Under the pieces are notes generated by a model. It worked only from the letters and a program-made list of their open reading frames with translations, ran no database searches and had not been told where the DNA came from. Below are positions 14,285-44,443 of a stretch of DNA of 44,443 nt, piece by piece. A program made the translations under genes and the position numbers. The stretch's first letter is position 1. The number at the start of each line of letters is the position of its first letter. The DNA is taken from the UHGV virus genome UHGV-0035288. One strand, written 5' to 3'. The DNA comes from a virus.

Positions 14285-14349
14285 TATGCAGTCCCCCTTT
14301 TTATGCAGTTGCCGTCGGTCATTGTATCAGCGAATTTAAAACAAACCTT

Positions 14350-14664
14350 ATTCAGTCTCAGACGAGGGGGGCCATTGACCCCCGTCTAGTCTGAAAGACT
14401 GGGGTGCTGTCCCGCTGTCCCGATCGGCTAAAACCCGCGGCAGCACTGGAGGGGACGGGGTGCTGTCCCGATCTGTCCCGCCTCATTCTGTCCCGCTTTT
14501 TGTCCCGCTTACTTTATGCACTAAAACTGCATAGACATTCACATTTTGGGGGTGGGACAGATCGGGACAGCACCCCTGTCCCGCTTTTAATCTATGCAAT
14601 GTAAGTGGGTAAATATGCAGTTTTAGAGGTGCGGGACAAAACGGGACGTCCCGCCTGTCCCGCT
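14350..14664. repeat. iteron-rich element, copy 1 (hairpin plus at least 13 GTCCCG-core repeats in both orientations)
   Basis: TGTCCCG(C/A) at 14408, 14416, 14464, 14474, 14489, 14501, 14577, 14656; GTCCCGC at 14648; inverted GGGACA/CGGGACA at 14554, 14563, 14632, 14642. Conserved hairpin CAGTCTCAGACGAGGGGGG...CCCCCGTCTAGTCTGAAAGACTGG at 14353-14402. About 70% of this block is repeated at 31188-31366. Confidence 0.8.
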
Positions 14665-14667
14665 TCG

Positions 14668-24112: not shown

Positions 24113-25498
24113 TTAGTAGAAGTCTACGGTAGGAACAGCGGCGATTGGACGAATCACAGGGAACAGGTGCGCAATAGGGTATCCCGCTGCGTCATTCATG
24201 TGGTCCACTCCGGCAGTTTTATCCGGCTCGCCTTTCTTCAGGTCGTAAACCTGCTGTTCCAGACATTTCGCTAGTGTAGGGCATTTATCCAGGTTGACAA
24301 AATACTGGCGCACGCCCTTCGAGTTGCACATCATCGTATTCATCGCGATCAATCGGTCTTTCACAGGTGGGTTAACGCTGTCATATTCCACCTCGAAGCC
24401 AGCGTCTTCCAGTTGTGCGATATCGGACGACGACGCGTTGACCGTCTTGCGGGATTTGCCGCTGCTATCAGGGTAAACTACAACCTTACCGGCAGCGCAA
24501 TGATCGGGGTAGCGCTCCTCGATCGCTTCAATCATAGCCGGGGTATCAAACAGGTCCACGAATTCATCCACGGCGTGAATCTCGTCGCGGAACTCCTTGT
24601 TCTCGGCGGTGCGCTGCCGTCTTACATACACGACCGCCGCCATTTTCGTGACGTTAAAGTCCATACCGATAATCAGCGTGTCTTCCGGTTGTACTTCTTC
24701 GGTGCTGGCGTTCTCCTCGCGATTAAACATCTTGTACACCGCGCCCGACGTAAGGTTAACAAATAGGCCGTTCAGGTACGCGTCGATCAGGTTAGCCGGG
24801 TACTGACTGCGCAGCGTGTCGATAAAGTCTGCCGGTAAATGGTGGTTGTCGGTGGTCTTCGCCCGGATCAGGCGCTTTTGGCTATCCTTCTCCACCTCGA
24901 AAATTTGATACATTGCCCGGAAGCCTTCCGGCGTGGACACGATGACAAACTGACGGACCACGCCCGCACGCAGACGACCGAGCAATTTGTGATAAGCCGC
25001 CATTGCGACGTCTTGCTTCGTGGTGTCGAACTCGTCGGCAACAATCCACGCGGCGTTGACCCCGATCAGACGGGTATAGTTCTCCATTGATTCACAGATC
25101 ACGCGGGTCCATTTGCCTTTCACCAGAACGCTATAGATCTTGTCCTGCTTGTTGAACTTCCACCGGAAGCCAGCCTCGTCGAAAGCCTTCTCCAATTCTG
25201 GATACATGATTTTAACCAGGAGGGGAATAGTCGGTTCTGTAACGATGCCATCATGACCCGGGTTCAGGGTTAAAAGCTGGATTACCTTACGGGCCGCGAC
25301 CCATGACTTGCCGCCGCCGAAGCCGGAACACAGGCCGAGGATTTTAGTCTTCGTGTCCCGCAGTAGTTCGACCTGGTGCGGTAGGCAATCAGGCTGGTAA
25401 AGCCGCACCGCCTGCGCAACGCGTGTCGGGCGCGGTGGTCGGTTGCGCTTCGCGATCGCGCGTTCCAGTGCGCGGTGTTCTGCAGCATAGTTACGCAT
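24113..25498 (-). CDS. terL: terminase large subunit
   Basis: 461 aa; Walker A GLCSGFGGGKS and Walker B-like WIVADEFD; ATG overlaps terS stop. Confidence 0.85.
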   Translation of the reverse strand: MRNYAAEHRALERAIAKRNRPPRPTRVAQAVRLYQPDCLPHQVELLRDTKTKILGLCSGFGGGKSWVAARKVIQLLTLNPGHDGIVTEPTIPLLVKIMYPELEKAFDEAGFRWKFNKQDKIYSVLVKGKWTRVICESMENYTRLIGVNAAWIVADEFDTTKQDVAMAAYHKLLGRLRAGVVRQFVIVSTPEGFRAMYQIFEVEKDSQKRLIRAKTTDNHHLPADFIDTLRSQYPANLIDAYLNGLFVNLTSGAVYKMFNREENASTEEVQPEDTLIIGMDFNVTKMAAVVYVRRQRTAENKEFRDEIHAVDEFVDLFDTPAMIEAIEERYPDHCAAGKVVVYPDSSGKSRKTVNASSSDIAQLEDAGFEVEYDSVNPPVKDRLIAMNTMMCNSKGVRQYFVNLDKCPTLAKCLEQQVYDLKKGEPDKTAGVDHMNDAAGYPIAHLFPVIRPIAAVPTVDFY

Positions 25499-26049
25499 TA
25501 TTCGCCCTGGCCTTTGCCGGTAGGTTCGACAACGACGTCGCCGTTATCATCTTCGTCGTCATCCAGTGGGATATCGTCGCGTACTCCGTGGTTGGCTTTG
25601 AGCAGGAAGGTCGCGAAGCCCGCCGCGATAGTCACGCCGCCAGCTTCCATCAGGAAAGTTTTCTGCAATTCCATAGCGTCCGCCATAGCCTCGGCGAACT
25701 CCTCATGTGCGCGCGCCCAGCGGTACAGGCAGGCAACGCCCACACCGATTTCCGCGGCAAATCGGCCGAAGGTTGGCATTTTGTTACGAGGGATTACCTG
25801 CGCAGCGCCTTTATCGGAGTAATTGACCTGCCAGGCGTCGGCGTCGGCAAAATAGCGGCGAAGCTGGTCGCAGTAAACGGATCGGTAGTCAGTAGGGCGT
25901 CCACATTTGCCGCCTTTACGGCGCTTGCCGTACTCGATCTCAGGTCCGAGATTGGTATGCTCGGTTTGCTCGCCTGGTTTACGGCGCGGGGTTACTGCCA
26001 CTCGTCCGTCCAGTTTGGCGCGTCGGCCCTTAACTTTGATTTCTGCCAT
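25498..26049 (-). CDS. terS: terminase small subunit
   Basis: Start moved to ATG 26049 (MAEIKVKG...); 183 aa; basic N-terminus, acidic C-terminus; directly upstream of terL. Confidence 0.6.
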   Translation of the reverse strand: MAEIKVKGRRAKLDGRVAVTPRRKPGEQTEHTNLGPEIEYGKRRKGGKCGRPTDYRSVYCDQLRRYFADADAWQVNYSDKGAAQVIPRNKMPTFGRFAAEIGVGVACLYRWARAHEEFAEAMADAMELQKTFLMEAGGVTIAAGFATFLLKANHGVRDDIPLDDDEDDNGDVVVEPTGKGQGE

Positions 26050-30643: not shown

Positions 30644-30970
30644 TTATTTCGCAAGCTTGGCAAATAGTTCGCGCTGGGCTTTAATCCGGGCAACGTTTGT
30701 CACTGCCTTCTCGCCGATCCCGAAGCGATACGCCAGGCGCTCACGGGCAAATGCCAGCGCGTAGTCCTGGATAGCGTTCGCCAACGGCTGGATCTCTCCC
30801 ATAGTGTCGAAGCGGCGCTCAAGCATACAGGCGATGGCCTGCTGCGTGACGCGAACAACAGACCACGCTGCCGATAGTCTTTCGACCGCTTCCGCTCCTT
30901 CACCGGCGAACTCCGCCGCTTCTTGTGCCGCCGCCATAGCCATTGCGTAATTCCAGATAATCGCTTTCAT
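30644..30970 (-). CDS. hypothetical protein (first gene of leftward small-gene operon)
   Basis: 108 aa; GAGGA SD then ATG 30970; promoter motifs just upstream. Confidence 0.5.
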   Translation of the reverse strand: MKAIIWNYAMAMAAAQEAAEFAGEGAEAVERLSAAWSVVRVTQQAIACMLERRFDTMGEIQPLANAIQDYALAFARERLAYRFGIGEKAVTNVARIKAQRELFAKLAK

Positions 30971-30991
30971 CGTTCAGTCCTCATGTTGGTG

Positions 30992-31031
30992 TGCAACCAA
31001 TATAGCAGGGTGCTGGAGTGGGTGCAACCAA
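30992..31031 (-). promoter_or_regulatory. promoter region with two TTGGTTGCA motifs (minus orientation)
   Basis: TGCAACCAA on plus at 30992-31000 and 31023-31031; same leader (TTGGTTGCACACCAACA..GAGGAC) as upstream of 20281. Confidence 0.5.
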
Positions 31032-31182
31032 TATTAATCACGCGCATGAAAAAGTTGATCGCTATCTGCTGTAACTGCAAACTGCATTTTTCACCCACCA
31101 TTCTGCAACGCGCATTGGTTGCCTAGTTCATCGACGACCGCAATTCGCATCTTGTTGCCGTGCGTTATGCAATCCCGGATTT

Positions 31183-31370
31183 TATGCAGTCTCAGACGAG
31201 GGGGGTGCCAGACCCCCCGTCTAGTCTGAAAGACTGGGGTGCTGTCCCGCTGTCCCGCTCCTCGCCAGGCCGCGTCATCCGGGGCGGGACGGGGGTGCTG
31301 TCCCGCTTTGTCCCGCCCCTGGTCTGTCCCGCTTTTTGTCCCGCTTACTTTATGCAGTTTTATTGCATAA
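31183..31370. repeat. iteron-rich element, copy 2
   Basis: Same hairpin (31188-31237) and TGTCCCGC repeats (31243, 31251, 31299, 31309, 31325, 31337; inverted GCGGGAC at 31284) as 14353-14520; in 480-bp intergenic gap downstream of primase-helicase. Confidence 0.8.
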
Positions 31371-31450
31371 CTATGCATTATACTCACACTACACGGCAAC
31401 CAACACGACCGACTAAAAGCACGCAAAATGGCAACCAATGCGCGCAAAAT

Positions 31451-33715
31451 TTAATCTTTTAAATCGTCATCGGTCGCTAAAAGCGTGATAGGGATATCCG
31501 ATTTGATGACCAAATTAGACGACCCATAGATGGCCCCGGTGTGTGGATCGGTGTAAAAACCTATCACTCCTCGCTCCACCATATCGTCGATTGCCTTCGT
31601 CGAAGTGCCACCTTTTGCCAGCCCAGCCTGGCGGACAATTGCCGATTTACTGAATCCAGTATGGTCCGGGTTATCTTCCATCAGTTTTTCCAGTGCCGCA
31701 TAAAGCACTTTCTCTTTTTCGTTGCGCGGTCCGGCGGTGTTCTCTTCCTTAACCGCGGCCTTGCCTGCCGCCTTCGCCTGTTCAATAGCGAACGGTGCCA
31801 GGGCAACCGGTACGAGGTAGAGAGTCTCGTCGCGTGGCGTGGAGGCAATCGGCTTGACGTCCCAACCGGCAACCACGTCACCGAAGTCTGGCCCGGTGCT
31901 GGTGGACTGGTGCGCCTCGAACGCCTCAGATTTGCGGAGATCCACCTTCACCTTGCACTTGAGCAGGACGAAGCCGCGCGGCGCTTGCTTGATGCCGTTA
32001 CGTGACTTCTCATGATACAGGTTCAATTGTCCGGGCTGGTTGTCGTCCGGCTGTTCCAGGAAGAACGCAGAATCGACAGCACCATGCAGCGCGCCGGACC
32101 CGCGTGGCGTTCTGCTGCCGTTTGCACCTTTAGCCGGGTGGTGGATGACGCCCGCACTGCCACCTGTATTTTCCGCGATGGCCTTCAGCGCTTTGACCAC
32201 TTCACCCATATCGCTGGCGTTGTTCTCGTCGAACGGTTTAGCCTCGGCGGACCGCAACGCAACAGTCTGGTTGAGTGAGTCGAACGCCACCAGGCCAACC
32301 GGTTCGCCATTAGCGGTGCGGTTGATAAAGCTGATAACTTCGCGCAAGCCCGATTTGCTGGTGATATCCCAGCCGCGTGACTGCAGATCGATAATGTGCA
32401 GCTTGTCCAGGTCGTGCTCATATTTAATCTGCAATGCTTCTTTACGCTGGTTGGAGGCTTCGCCACCTTCCGCGTCGAAATAGAAGCAATGAGACTGGAC
32501 GACCTTCGCACCGCCAAACGGAATACCCGCGGCAACCGCGCCCATCTGGCCCAGCACGTAGAAAGACTTACCGATATTCGACTCACCCGCCATGTACCAG
32601 GTCGATTTAAAGTTAATCAACCCCTCGATAATCGGGTCGTGCTTACTGAACAGCGCAACCGGCTCGTTATCCAGATCCGCATCGGTGCACCCGCCATATT
32701 CTTCGCCGTCGCCAACCGCATCAACAATATGTTCATATAAGGATTCGACTTCCTCGTCGTCCAGCCCCGGAAGGATGGCGGCGATTTGCTTACGGGACAT
32801 ATTGTGTGGCTCGACGTTCAGGTGGTCCGGTATCCCGATGAGACGTAGCGCCAGGTGCTGGTGTCTATTTAGCTCCGAGCAACACTCGTTGCCGGTGTGC
32901 ATACACTTGAAACGGATCTCGCCATCCTTAACCATGATAGCCGTCGACCCTTCGCCGCTGTGCAGATGTTCGTTCGGGCACGGCACTTCATAGCCCCGCC
33001 CGGAAGATAACTCCTCGAATCCTGCCTGGAAGCACCAGTCCAGAATGCCGTCTGCCACTGCGTCGTCGCCCTGGGTCAGTTCGCGGCGAACTTCCTCCTT
33101 CTCCACGCCCAACTTATCCGCCAGGCGGAGCAGACGACGGACGCGGGCGCGCTTGCCATAGTGGCACTTAATAACAGACTGCTGGTGTGGCAGGTACATC
33201 AGGCGGTTCGTGTCTTTCGTGCAATCGTCGAAGTCCACATCTGACAGACCCAGTTGGTGTAATAGTGCATACTGGACGCGGCCCAGGTCTTCTGCCGGTA
33301 CAGGCTTGTCCGTGAGCACCAGGAAACGGGCGCAACGCGTGCCGCCTTTCAGCGGGTGGCGGTCGCCGGTTGTGGTGTGAAAGACGTGCTCCAGTCCCGC
33401 GTCGATGAACGCCTTACGGCAGCGGCGTAGGGTGCGGGTGTCGGTACGGTCTATATCGAAGAACAGGATCGAGCGGTCCACCGCACTGGTCTTACGACGC
33501 AATCCGTCACTGGTATATGCCACGATGCCGTCGGCCTTACGCTTGCGGCGCGCATACTCGGCTTTATCTTCCGTTTTGTTGATATGCACCGAGGAGATTT
33601 CTTTCGCATCATTGATAAATTCGAAAAACTCTTCGGTAGTCATCTGGAAGTTTTCCGCCCTGGCTTTTTCGCCTTTTTTAGCGGGTCTTGTTACAGCGAA
33701 TTTAATTAAGCTCAT
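31451..33715 (-). CDS. DNA primase-helicase (N-terminal primase-polymerase-like domain, C-terminal P-loop helicase)
   Basis: 754 aa; Walker A-like GESNIGKS in C-terminal half, acidic and Cys/His-containing N-terminal half; ATG 33715. Confidence 0.75.
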   Translation of the reverse strand: MSLIKFAVTRPAKKGEKARAENFQMTTEEFFEFINDAKEISSVHINKTEDKAEYARRKRKADGIVAYTSDGLRRKTSAVDRSILFFDIDRTDTRTLRRCRKAFIDAGLEHVFHTTTGDRHPLKGGTRCARFLVLTDKPVPAEDLGRVQYALLHQLGLSDVDFDDCTKDTNRLMYLPHQQSVIKCHYGKRARVRRLLRLADKLGVEKEEVRRELTQGDDAVADGILDWCFQAGFEELSSGRGYEVPCPNEHLHSGEGSTAIMVKDGEIRFKCMHTGNECCSELNRHQHLALRLIGIPDHLNVEPHNMSRKQIAAILPGLDDEEVESLYEHIVDAVGDGEEYGGCTDADLDNEPVALFSKHDPIIEGLINFKSTWYMAGESNIGKSFYVLGQMGAVAAGIPFGGAKVVQSHCFYFDAEGGEASNQRKEALQIKYEHDLDKLHIIDLQSRGWDITSKSGLREVISFINRTANGEPVGLVAFDSLNQTVALRSAEAKPFDENNASDMGEVVKALKAIAENTGGSAGVIHHPAKGANGSRTPRGSGALHGAVDSAFFLEQPDDNQPGQLNLYHEKSRNGIKQAPRGFVLLKCKVKVDLRKSEAFEAHQSTSTGPDFGDVVAGWDVKPIASTPRDETLYLVPVALAPFAIEQAKAAGKAAVKEENTAGPRNEKEKVLYAALEKLMEDNPDHTGFSKSAIVRQAGLAKGGTSTKAIDDMVERGVIGFYTDPHTGAIYGSSNLVIKSDIPITLLATDDDLKD

Positions 33716-33725
33716 TGCCGTGGCC

Positions 33726-34055
33726 TTACTTAGAAGTTTTATTATTGCGTACCCAGGAGCGCACTGTGCTCTGATTAATTCCGGTCAACTCGGCAATCAT
33801 CGCCCAGGATTTGCCCTCGGCGCGCAAACGGATAACCTGCTTTTTGTATTCTTCCATTTCTTCATTGTGCTTTTGCAGCTTGCTGGCTGCCGTACCGTTG
33901 AGCAATTCCAGCCTGGCGCGTAATTCTTTTTCTACACTGCGCAGGCGCTCTACCTCAAATAGCACCGCCCCAACGGCATCGGTATAAGCCCATGACCGGC
34001 TTGTTTCACTGCTAACAGTCTTCGTTAACATTTCGATTGCGTCGTCGATATTCAT
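33726..34055 (-). CDS. HTH DNA-binding regulator
   Basis: 109 aa; C-terminal helix-turn-helix (SWAMIAELTGINQSTVRSWV); GAGGG SD; first gene of leftward transcription from divergent control region. Confidence 0.55.
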   Translation of the reverse strand: MNIDDAIEMLTKTVSSETSRSWAYTDAVGAVLFEVERLRSVEKELRARLELLNGTAASKLQKHNEEMEEYKKQVIRLRAEGKSWAMIAELTGINQSTVRSWVRNNKTSK

Positions 34056-34185
34056 TGCTCTGCCCTCAGTTGGTTAATGACCAACGAAACTACACCTAAA
34101 ACCGCAAGGTGTCAAATCCTTTGGATATTGAAACGGGCGCGCACGCGTGTAATAATAATTCCCGTCTCATTGTCTCTTATTGGTT

Positions 34186-34220
34186 AGCGCCGTTGCATTT
34201 TGCCTCGGCGCTTTTTTTTT
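34186..34220 (+). terminator. orphan rho-independent terminator in the divergent control region
   Basis: AGCGCCG-13 nt loop-CGGCGCT followed by T9 (34212-34220); no coding gene precedes it on the plus strand within 3 kb. Confidence 0.5.
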
Positions 34221-34231
34221 GAAATTAGTTG

Positions 34232-34260
34232 TTGACTCCCTTCTGCAACCAATCTAATAT
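34232..34260 (+). promoter_or_regulatory. strong sigma70-like early promoter (TTGACT-17-TAATAT)
   Basis: -35 TTGACT 34232-34237, 17-bp spacer containing GCAACCAAT, -10 TAATAT 34255-34260. Confidence 0.6.
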
Positions 34261-34458
34261 TCCCCTCGTCGACAGGATGCAGGACGCAAACTGGAGAGGG
34301 GCAACGCAGGGGCCGGATCGAAGTGTCGGGATTCCCAACCGTGATGATATAACCCGGTCCACTACCCGAACGGGAGAACGCGCAACCGGGCAATATGTTA
34401 AGGCCACCGACGAAGTTAACTGCCGACACCTAAACTTAACCAATCGGAGATATAAAAC

Positions 34459-34974
34459 ATGTTTGAACAAATCGTAAACCTGATTACTCGCGGCGTAGTA
34501 GCACTGGAAACCATCGCTAAGCATTATGAAACCGTTGGCGCTGCCGTTGGTAAGCAGGAAGACAAGAAGCCGTCTAAGGTGAAAAAAGAAGTCGTAGAAG
34601 ATGACGACGATGAAACCGAAGACGAAAAACCGGCGAAAACCAAAAAATCCACAGCGAAAGGCAAGGCCAAAAAAGAAGTCGTAGAAGATGACGACGATGA
34701 AGCCGAAGACGAAAAACCAGCGAAGGGTAAAAAAGCTCCGGCGAAAGGCAAAGGCAAGAAAGATGCCGATCCGCTGGCGGAGATGCGCGACGAAATCAAA
34801 CAATATGCCGCTATTATCGCTGGTGGTGACGACGACGACGCGAACGACGAATTTGACGACCTGCTGGAATCGTTCGAGATCAAATCAATCGCCAAGCTGG
34901 AAGATGAAGACGTCGAAGACTTCCACAAAGATCTTAAAGAAATCGTCGAAACTTATTTCGAACTGGAAGATTAA
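34459..34974 (+). CDS. highly acidic tandem-repeat protein (first early gene)
   Basis: GGAGA SD then ATG 34459; 171 aa; duplicated block KEVVEDDDDE(T/A)EDEKPAK (DNA repeat at about 34584-34634 and 34668-34718); strongly acidic overall. Confidence 0.6.
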   Translation: MFEQIVNLITRGVVALETIAKHYETVGAAVGKQEDKKPSKVKKEVVEDDDDETEDEKPAKTKKSTAKGKAKKEVVEDDDDEAEDEKPAKGKKAPAKGKGKKDADPLAEMRDEIKQYAAIIAGGDDDDANDEFDDLLESFEIKSIAKLEDEDVEDFHKDLKEIVETYFELED

Positions 34975-34981
34975 TATTATC

Positions 34982-35009
34982 CGGCCCGCTAATCTGCGGG
35001 CCTCTTTTT
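34982..35009 (+). terminator. rho-independent terminator
   Basis: GGCCCGC-TAATCT-GCGGGCC hairpin followed by TCTTTTT. Confidence 0.6.
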
Positions 35010-37218: not shown

Positions 37219-37998
37219 ATGGCTAAAGTCAACCTGAAAAATGTGCGTGTATGTTTCCTTAAAATTTGGGAACGTGATACCCCTAAACAGGATGGACAAA
37301 AACCGGCATACCGCGCCGTGATTCTTCTTGATAAAGAAGATCCGCAGGTGGACAAAGTGGAAGCGGCAGCGCGCGCAGTGCTCACCGACAAGCTGAAATC
37401 CGAGAAGAATGCCGATAAGTGGATGGACCGCCACTACGCCCAGGATTCTAAGGAATGCGCAGTCCGCGACGGTGACGAGCGCGACGAAGTAACCGAAGAA
37501 TTCGAAGGCATGTTGTACATCAACGCTAAATCGTTCAAACAGCCGAACATCCAAACGTCACTGGGCGAGAAGCAGACCGAGCAAGGTCTGACCGTAGAAG
37601 GCGACGAGATCGAAGGCCAGGAAATCTATTCCGGTTGTTATTGCAACGTGTCACTGGATATTTGGGCGTGGAACAACACCAACGGTAAGGGACTCGGTGC
37701 TGGTCTTTTGGGTCTGCGATTCCGCGTCGACGGCGAAGCCTTCGGCGGTGGCGGGTCTTCTTGCTCGGACGAGGACCTGGGCGACGATGACGAAGATGAA
37801 AGCCCGCGCAAGTCCAAAAAGTCAAAACGTCGTGATGACGATGATGAAGACGACAAGCCGCGCAAGTCCAAAAAGTCCAAGCGCCGCGATGACGACGACG
37901 ATGATGAAACACCTCGCAAACGTCGTAAGCCACGCGATGACGAAGATGAGGACGACGACGACGAAGACAAAGCACCGCGTAAACGTCGCCGCCGTTAA
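37219..37998 (+). CDS. single-stranded DNA-binding protein (DUF2815-like) with Lys/Arg-Asp/Glu repeat tail
   Basis: Track start is GTG 37198; ATG 37219 has GAGGA SD. N-terminus MAKVNLKNVRV typical of this SSB family; C-terminal 90 aa are alternating basic/acidic repeats (PRKSKKSKRRDDDDEDD x2, ending KRRRR). Confidence 0.6.
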   Translation: MAKVNLKNVRVCFLKIWERDTPKQDGQKPAYRAVILLDKEDPQVDKVEAAARAVLTDKLKSEKNADKWMDRHYAQDSKECAVRDGDERDEVTEEFEGMLYINAKSFKQPNIQTSLGEKQTEQGLTVEGDEIEGQEIYSGCYCNVSLDIWAWNNTNGKGLGAGLLGLRFRVDGEAFGGGGSSCSDEDLGDDDEDESPRKSKKSKRRDDDDEDDKPRKSKKSKRRDDDDDDETPRKRRKPRDDEDEDDDDEDKAPRKRRRR

Positions 37999-41014: not shown

Positions 41015-41038
41015 GGCGGGCTTGTCCCGCCATTTTTG
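41015..41038 (+). terminator. rho-independent terminator
   Basis: GGCGGG-CTTGT-CCCGCC hairpin followed by ATTTTT. Confidence 0.6.
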
Positions 41039-43744: not shown

Positions 43745-43746
43745 GA

Positions 43747-43773
43747 GGGTGTCCGGTTGGGACGCCCTTTTTT
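43747..43773 (+). terminator. terminator-like hairpin immediately downstream of promoter
   Basis: GGGTGTCC-GGTT-GGACGCCC stem (one G-T wobble) followed by T6 (43768-43773). Confidence 0.5.
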
Positions 43774-43792
43774 AATACCTGGAGACAACACG

Positions 43793-44035
43793 ATGAGATC
43801 ATTATTTTTCGACTACGACGGCGACCTTCGATTTTGGGTGATACTCACCCTCATGTTTGCCGTTTGTATTTTCGTACCTACCGCGGCTATTTACTACTCG
43901 GAACGCTACGAATGCCGGACTGTGTACGCAGAGCAAACAGGTCGTAACACCCAATGGCGCTATGGTGTCTGCTGGGTTGAGATGGACGGCAAATTTATTC
44001 CTCGCGATGAGATTCGCACAACGGAGATTAAATAA
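43793..44035 (+). CDS. small membrane protein
   Basis: Track start 43733 precedes the promoter/terminator; ATG 43793 has GGAGA SD. 80 aa; hydrophobic helix FWVILTLMFAVCIFVPTAAIYY. Confidence 0.45.
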   Translation: MRSLFFDYDGDLRFWVILTLMFAVCIFVPTAAIYYSERYECRTVYAEQTGRNTQWRYGVCWVEMDGKFIPRDEIRTTEIK

Positions 44036-44443
44036 ATGAAAATTTTACAAGAAGAGAAGAATTACTGGGCAGCGCAATGCCTCGAAGCCCGCGAACAGGC
44101 CGAACGTGCGAACGCGTTGGCGGGCACCAACCAGGCGCTATATGAAGGAGAGAAGAAAGCGCGCCAGGAGCTAGCGGAGCGCTTCGGACTGCTATTCGAA
44201 TTGATGGGGATTATGCAGCGCACCGGATACACCACCAGCGTTGCACTAAACCGCATCACTGCCGAAGGGCTGCGCGATCATTGCAAACGTGCGGAGGAGT
44301 ACGTTCGTCCGAAGGGTCGCCAGTCTAAGATCGACAGGAAAGACCTTGTACTCATGGCGTGGCGCAACCCTACAAACGGCAGCATATACCCGAACGCGCG
44401 CCCGCTTAGTGCCGAGGAATCAAAGCGCGTGCAACGAATCATC
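44036..44443 (+). CDS. hypothetical protein, 3'-truncated at window end
   Basis: GGAGA SD then ATG 44036; open for 136 codons to the last base of the window with no stop. Confidence 0.45.
   Translation, partial: MKILQEEKNYWAAQCLEAREQAERANALAGTNQALYEGEKKARQELAERFGLLFELMGIMQRTGYTTSVALNRITAEGLRDHCKRAEEYVRPKGRQSKIDRKDLVLMAWRNPTNGSIYPNARPLSAEESKRVQRII

Follow-up and report, generated by a model that had tools for sequence, protein, structure and literature searches.

A conserved gene divided between the two ends of a Dhillonvirus genome record

Introduction

The sequence considered here, UHGV virus genome UHGV-0035288, is a single record of 44,443 nucleotides, referred to below as the window. It stops in the middle of an open reading frame that starts at position 44036, which raises the question of why the sequence ends where it does. 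The boundary could be a physical end of the virion chromosome, a cleavage site used in packaging, a place at which sequence has been lost, or simply the point at which a circular map was opened. The original prediction favoured the last of these, proposing a full genome that had been linearised at an arbitrary point.

Results

A reading frame that crosses the record ends

On direct reading, the ATG at 44036-44038 follows immediately on a TAA (44033-44035) that is the stop codon of the upstream ORF, and the 408 nucleotides from 44036 to 44443 on the + strand make up exactly 136 codons, with no stop codon as far as the last base. If the frame is carried into base 1, it continues for 18 further codons (KKGEKIALYAIDPDHAEA) and closes at a TGA at 55-57. 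The split gene thus has codons 1-136 of 154 at 44036-44443, and codons 137-154 with the stop codon at 1-57 on the same strand. Its upstream neighbour, whose TAA abuts the ATG, is an ORF of 80 amino acids (43793-44035, + strand; gene call L004 9758-10000), the equivalent of which is annotated as a 243-nt CDS in UAE_MI-01 and Pubbukkers. Its downstream neighbour (44-529, + strand) encodes a Dam-type N6-adenine DNA methyltransferase of 161 amino acids, which matches Pfam PF05869 over residues 3-140 with an E-value of 3.4e-36 and 124.9 bits; this is above the gathering cut-off of 28.1 and places it in that family. The last 14 nucleotides of the split gene (44-57) overlap the start of the Dam gene. 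The original prediction, which had the frame open at the last base, closing at 55-57 after 18 codons and overlapping a dam ATG at 44, was therefore correct in both coordinates and arithmetic.

An open frame over the join is, taken alone, not beyond chance. Eighteen stop-free codons are unremarkable, and a second frame on the + strand is likewise open over the join, for 75 codons. It is the homology of the product, rather than the open frame, that makes the join significant.

Evidence that the two ends are contiguous

The joined product aligns over all 154 residues, without gaps, with the 154-residue proteins of KarlBarth (bas17_0034) and UAE_MI-01 (_0048), both annotated as hypothetical proteins. 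The identity is 88-89%, and the alignment takes in the last 18 residues. In a family alignment extending to relatives of 26-37% identity, K141, L144 and Y145 are invariant, and all three are encoded past the junction. The 14-nt overlap with the Dam gene is also annotated in KarlBarth, UAE_MI-01 and Pubbukkers (gp34).

The same continuity is seen at the nucleotide level. A 921-nt query over the junction matches 153 phage records, in 150 of which at least 80% of it is covered at a single interior place, and a 400-nt probe centred on the join matches 158 related GenBank records at 158 places, with none of them split there. A multiple alignment with relatives has no indel at the join. In the pairwise alignment with Pubbukkers, 31 unaligned nucleotides of the window at the join stand against 31 in that record, so that the two are collinear base for base.

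A separate assembly, the MEGAHIT contig ERZ27287508:k141_42906 in ENA (44,540 bp), passes straight over 44443/1, the join lying at its positions 14556/14557. It is identical to the joined window across 20,465 nt centred on the split gene, and there are no mismatches to the circularised window in the 36,596 positions compared, a comparison made on three fetched pieces of the contig. The contig ends at window position 14460 and begins at 14508, giving a self-overlap of 49 nt (14460-14508), and its start carries a 48-nt fold-back artefact; together these account for its length (44,443 + 49 + 48 = 44,540). A second assembly thus closes the same circle, broken 14.5 kb away in a repeat-rich intergenic region. 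Being 100% identical, it may share its isolate or its reads with the window; its independence is that of an assembly, and need not extend to the sample. The original prediction had taken the genome to be circular or permuted, and this contig, by spanning the join and wrapping the circle with a 49-nt overlap, agrees with it: the record ends are contiguous, as in permuted headful genomes.

It is worth adding that gene calls in sources from NCBI, ENA and Logan include the exact 154-residue protein, intact, and that neither the GC skew nor the AT skew changes sign from one side of the join to the other. These comparisons demonstrate that the join is real DNA, that the gene is full length, that the map is closed and that relatives are unsplit at this point. 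The split gene is intact in the phage, and its apparent truncation is an artefact of record keeping.

Genome identity and layout

The window is a complete Dhillonvirus genome, this genus comprising HK578/SO-1-like siphophages of E. coli. More than 140 Dhillonvirus records match it at 90-95% nucleotide identity. By ICTV convention, members of a genus share at least about 70% nucleotide similarity over the genome length; here, 41,740 of the 44,443 nucleotides align to Pubbukkers, in long collinear stretches that are about 90-93% identical and in a few short fragments for which the figure is about 80-88%. After rotation and reverse complementation the whole Pubbukkers map is collinear with the window, so that the structural, lysis and replication modules share one gene order, as gene calls with Pfam labels also support. 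The window is probably a species-level lineage different from those in phage-collection records, judging by the regions tested, in which none of those records exceeds about 93% identity. The phage mckay was considered as a possible identical phage, and was ruled out with an identity of only 87-90%.

The genome is arranged in two arms. The + arm carries replication and DNA-modification genes and extends from 34459 across the join as far as 2375, and the - arm carries tail, head, terminase, lysis and primase genes and runs from 34055 down to 2402. Two ORFs of the early arm contain in-frame tandem duplications that encode acidic/lysine-rich repeats, at 34576-34749 (87 nt) and at 37783-37890 (54 nt), the latter within the gene for an Enc34-type ssDNA-binding protein. 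Searches with Rfam at gathering thresholds and with ARAGORN gave no matches.

Transcription signals along the + arm

The original prediction went further, and had the rightward arm running uninterrupted from a promoter at 34232, through the junction, to a terminator at about 2374. The + arm begins at a divergent intergenic region (34056-34458), which is flanked by genes at 33726-34055 (- strand) and 34459-34974 (+ strand) and contains two promoter-like sites. The site at 34232 is indeed present, but is weak, with 9 of 12 consensus positions; that at 34128 is better, with 10 of 12 and an extended -10 TG. At the other end of the arm, the predicted terminator was found as a bidirectional terminator-like hairpin at 2376-2399, with 10 pairs when read on the - strand and 8 on the other, lying between the last + strand gene (1800-2375) and the - strand tail fibre gene (2402 onward).

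The continuity of the arm was confirmed as far as gene orientation and skew are concerned, both of which continue over the join. However, three strong terminator-like hairpins on the + strand lie in intergenic gaps within it, at 34983-35002 and 41015-41031, each with a T-run, and at 43745-43769, where 10 pairs are followed by TTTTTT and the split gene starts about 270 nt further on. The arm is therefore not evidently a single transcription unit, and these predicted signals leave room for more than one transcript.

At 68-88, 11 nt past the stop codon of the split gene and already within the coding region of Dam, there is a perfect G+C-rich hairpin of 8 bp with TTATTT after it, and three relatives have the stem unchanged. 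It was rejected as a terminator because it is inside the Dam gene, and its conservation is probably explained by the coding of the Dam N-terminus.

Repeats and short motifs

A direct repeat of about 190 nt, with 82-89% identity between its copies, is found at 14348-14665 and 31182-31377, 16.8 kb apart and in both cases intergenic. One block precedes the tape-measure gene, and the other lies just downstream of the gene for a primase/helicase of 754 amino acids. The octamer CGGGACAG occurs 14 times in the window against 1.5 expected, with 12 of the 14 copies inside the two blocks, and both copies of the repeat are conserved in Pubbukkers. The arrangement resembles iterons, and the blocks could be an origin or sites for binding of a regulator; they are candidates for either. 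The ENA contig broke and folded back exactly at the block near 14.5 kb.

The 9-mer TTGGTTGCA has 12 exact copies in the window, and 24 copies with at most one mismatch against 11 expected. Most copies are paired 13-31 nt apart and stand in intergenic gaps of both arms, the sites including 1190/1203, 20236/20250, 30992/31023, 43712/43729 (this pair preceding the hairpin at 43745-43769) and 34244. The 9-mer is a candidate for a promoter or operator element specific to the phage.

Terminase genes and packaging class

The small terminase subunit (183 amino acids) is encoded at 25498-26049 on the - strand (gene call L007 91-642). It matches phrog_3064 (terminase) with an E-value of 1.2e-72 and corresponds to Pubbukkers gp1. 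Below the Pfam cut-offs it resembles GP3_package (22.0 bits, cut-off 29.4) and Sf6_terminase (19.6 bits, cut-off 27), and a search of NCBIfam gave no match. The large subunit (461 amino acids) is encoded at 24113-25498 on the same strand and contains the Pfam domains Terminase_6N (E-value 1.5e-14) and Terminase_6C (3.8e-07); in NCBIfam it found only the PBSX-type model TIGR01547, below cut-off. Neither subunit, compared by sequence with PDB chains, matched a solved terminase. In P22, SPP1 and P1 the pac site is in or beside the small terminase gene, and in the window that gene is likewise the likely neighbourhood of the pac site. It is also the conventional zero point of records in the genus, the start of Pubbukkers mapping to about 26.1-26.4 kb of the window.

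Circular assemblies and headful packaging have been reported for members of the genus (PMC9022532, PMC10059673, PMC13348001). Published PhageTerm analyses of three members gave headful (pac) packaging with permuted and terminally redundant DNA. For Opt-212, the records in the study were started at the small terminase gene because of this result (PMC9022532). BF9 is reported to have a headful (pac) permuted genome (PMC10059673), and UDS3lw to be headful with a preferred pac site (PMC13348001). The homologue of the window join is interior in all three records. Across relatives in general its position varies between about 2 kb and about 43 kb, and either strand may carry it; zero points in the genus are thus shown to be conventions. 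Taking published work on relatives together with the type of terminase, we infer that this phage too would package by headful, with the relatives contributing most to the assignment.

Why the record opens within this gene

The explanation that we prefer, and consider very probable, is that the window holds the genome of a virulent Dhillonvirus siphophage in full, obtained as a circular assembly of a headful phage and opened at an arbitrary point. Concatemeric DNA would be packaged by headful from a pac site, and the virion chromosomes would thus be terminally redundant and circularly permuted, so that reads from them assemble to a circle. The depositor must then pick a zero point for a linear record, and here chance would have placed it inside a conserved gene of 154 codons, after codon 136 and before codon 137.

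If instead the window boundaries were true physical ends, cos or blunt, the continuation of the ORF would be coincidental. This much is not improbable in itself, as the second open frame illustrates, but the 18 residues encoded after the join match the C-termini of the homologues, including the three invariant positions; moreover, the separate assembly spans the join, none of the 158 relatives ends there, and a search of the window ends found no direct repeat of 5 nt or longer and no other terminal repeat or cos-like feature. This explanation is effectively refuted, and we give it hardly any weight. Even less credible is an incomplete window, with sequence lost between its end and its start. 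The ENA contig refutes it by placing positions 44443 and 1 side by side, and the equal gaps of 31 nt in the Pubbukkers alignment, a protein as long as those of relatives and coverage of the whole Pubbukkers map all point the same way.

Two other explanations accept the circle and differ in what they make of its opening or its origin; we regard each of them as improbable, to about the same degree. One is that the zero point is a pac cleavage site or preferred terminus, the record having been rewritten by a termini-calling program, and the output of such programs for pac phages does include reorganised sequences. However, about 18 kb separate the break from the terminase genes (24113-26049), and the site has neither repeat nor motif, so that it is unlikely to be a pac end; the homologous point is, besides, interior in the PhageTerm-analysed BF9, UDS3lw and Opt212. 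The other gives the virion DNA fixed ends and places a direct terminal repeat elsewhere on the map, collapsed into a circle on assembly; the window would be an arbitrary rotation in this case too. From a circular assembly by itself, such a repeat cannot be told from permutation, and Terminase_6N/6C domains are not by themselves diagnostic of a packaging class. Against this, three genus members were called headful/pac by read analysis (PMC9022532, PMC10059673, PMC13348001), and no fixed repeats in the genus were found in the literature searched. We therefore retain arbitrary opening of a permuted headful genome, and the original prediction of a full genome linearised in this way is supported by the relatives, the contig, the collinearity with Pubbukkers and the packaging reports for the genus.

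The product of the split gene

The joined product covers positions 1-153 of the 154 of phrog_10530, with an E-value of 4.4e-94. This similarity to gp34-like proteins is full length, and includes the N-terminal EEKxYW and C-terminal AW...NG.Y...K..LY motifs. Clustering at 50% identity gives 12 clusters for this family among 1.84 billion representatives, which makes it a small one. The protein has no match in Pfam or NCBIfam (E-values up to 0.01 and 0.1), and its sole hit by sequence among PDB chains is unrelated (E-value 0.68).

An AF2 model was obtained with a mean pLDDT of 79.9 and a pTM of 0.42. It has a long helix (residues 2-63), a second helix (76-87) and then a small C-terminal α/β domain, in which the last β-strand, at 142-147, is encoded by the codons past the junction. 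The helix of about 60 residues is, according to the model, probably a coiled coil. A Foldseek search of the model against PDB gave nothing with an E-value below 4, and in BFVD it matched only uncharacterised phage proteins.

Homologues of 152-154 amino acids are named DNA ligase in many records, among them the RefSeq entries of SSL-2009a, SO-1, EK99P-1, slur05 and Gluttony. This label, which is also that of phrog_10530, has no support from domains, sequence or fold, even though the profile matches the product end to end. A ligase core does not fit in 154 amino acids. No nucleotidyltransferase (adenylation) domain with a catalytic lysine motif was found in the protein, and no ligase-like structural neighbour of the model. 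One depositor's annotation reads "Possible DNA ligase but no evidence". The clear conclusion is that the name is a propagated misannotation.

The split gene belongs to a phage-only family and is always directly upstream of the Dam gene, with the 14-nt overlap, inside a Dcm-HNH-Dam block of DNA-modification genes. Its fixed position and the overlap allow a functional link with Dam, rather than demonstrating one. The product might work as a partner of Dam, perhaps as an anti-restriction factor or as a subunit with a regulatory or specificity role, instead of being a bystander; we think this rather unlikely.

Among the matches listed for the 400-nt probe, low coverage occurs only in JL1 and HK578, in which part or most of the split ORF is unaligned. 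Only the Dam side of the probe aligns in the type phage HK578 (NC_019724.1; coverage 37%), and JL1 (NC_019419.2) aligns in two pieces (68%). From these alignments, the gene appears to be missing or replaced in some members of the genus.

Discussion

The division of this gene between the two ends of the window is an ordinary phenomenon. Headful packaging and circular assemblies have already been reported for the genus, and so it tells us nothing new about the biology of the phage; it matters mainly as housekeeping of the record. A gene finder run on the linear record drops or truncates one conserved gene (44036-44443 plus 1-57), and comparison with other Dhillonvirus records requires rotation and reverse complementation. 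The record would be better opened at the small terminase gene, at about 26.1 kb on the - strand, which is the convention of the genus.

The headful (pac) phages P22, SPP1, P1 and Sf6, with circularly permuted and terminally redundant DNA, resemble the window in giving a closed circular assembly and a record without a fixed terminal repeat, and the small terminase of the window is weakly similar, below threshold, to P22 gp3 and to that of Sf6, alongside a large subunit of the Terminase_6N/6C type. For the window, headful packaging is predicted, mainly from relatives.

The likeness to Dhillonvirus is far closer. HK578, SO-1, SSL-2009a, EK99P-1, the BASEL phages KarlBarth and GeorgBuechner, Pubbukkers and UAE_MI-01 have 90-93% identity to the window over most of the genome. 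The differences include the DNA polymerase, gp42 of Pubbukkers, which is annotated there as intein-containing (3,189 nt), whereas the polymerase of the window has 763 amino acids and is without a segment of about 900 nt (30867-31762 of Pubbukkers, L003, against about 39631 in the window). This would imply that the intein is present in some members of the genus and absent in others. The combination of zero point and strand used for the window record is also unique among the 158 relatives. Once the circle is closed, the order around the join is the one common to the genus, with the helicase, Dcm, HNH, the 80-residue ORF, the 154-residue ORF and Dam followed by the convergent tail genes.
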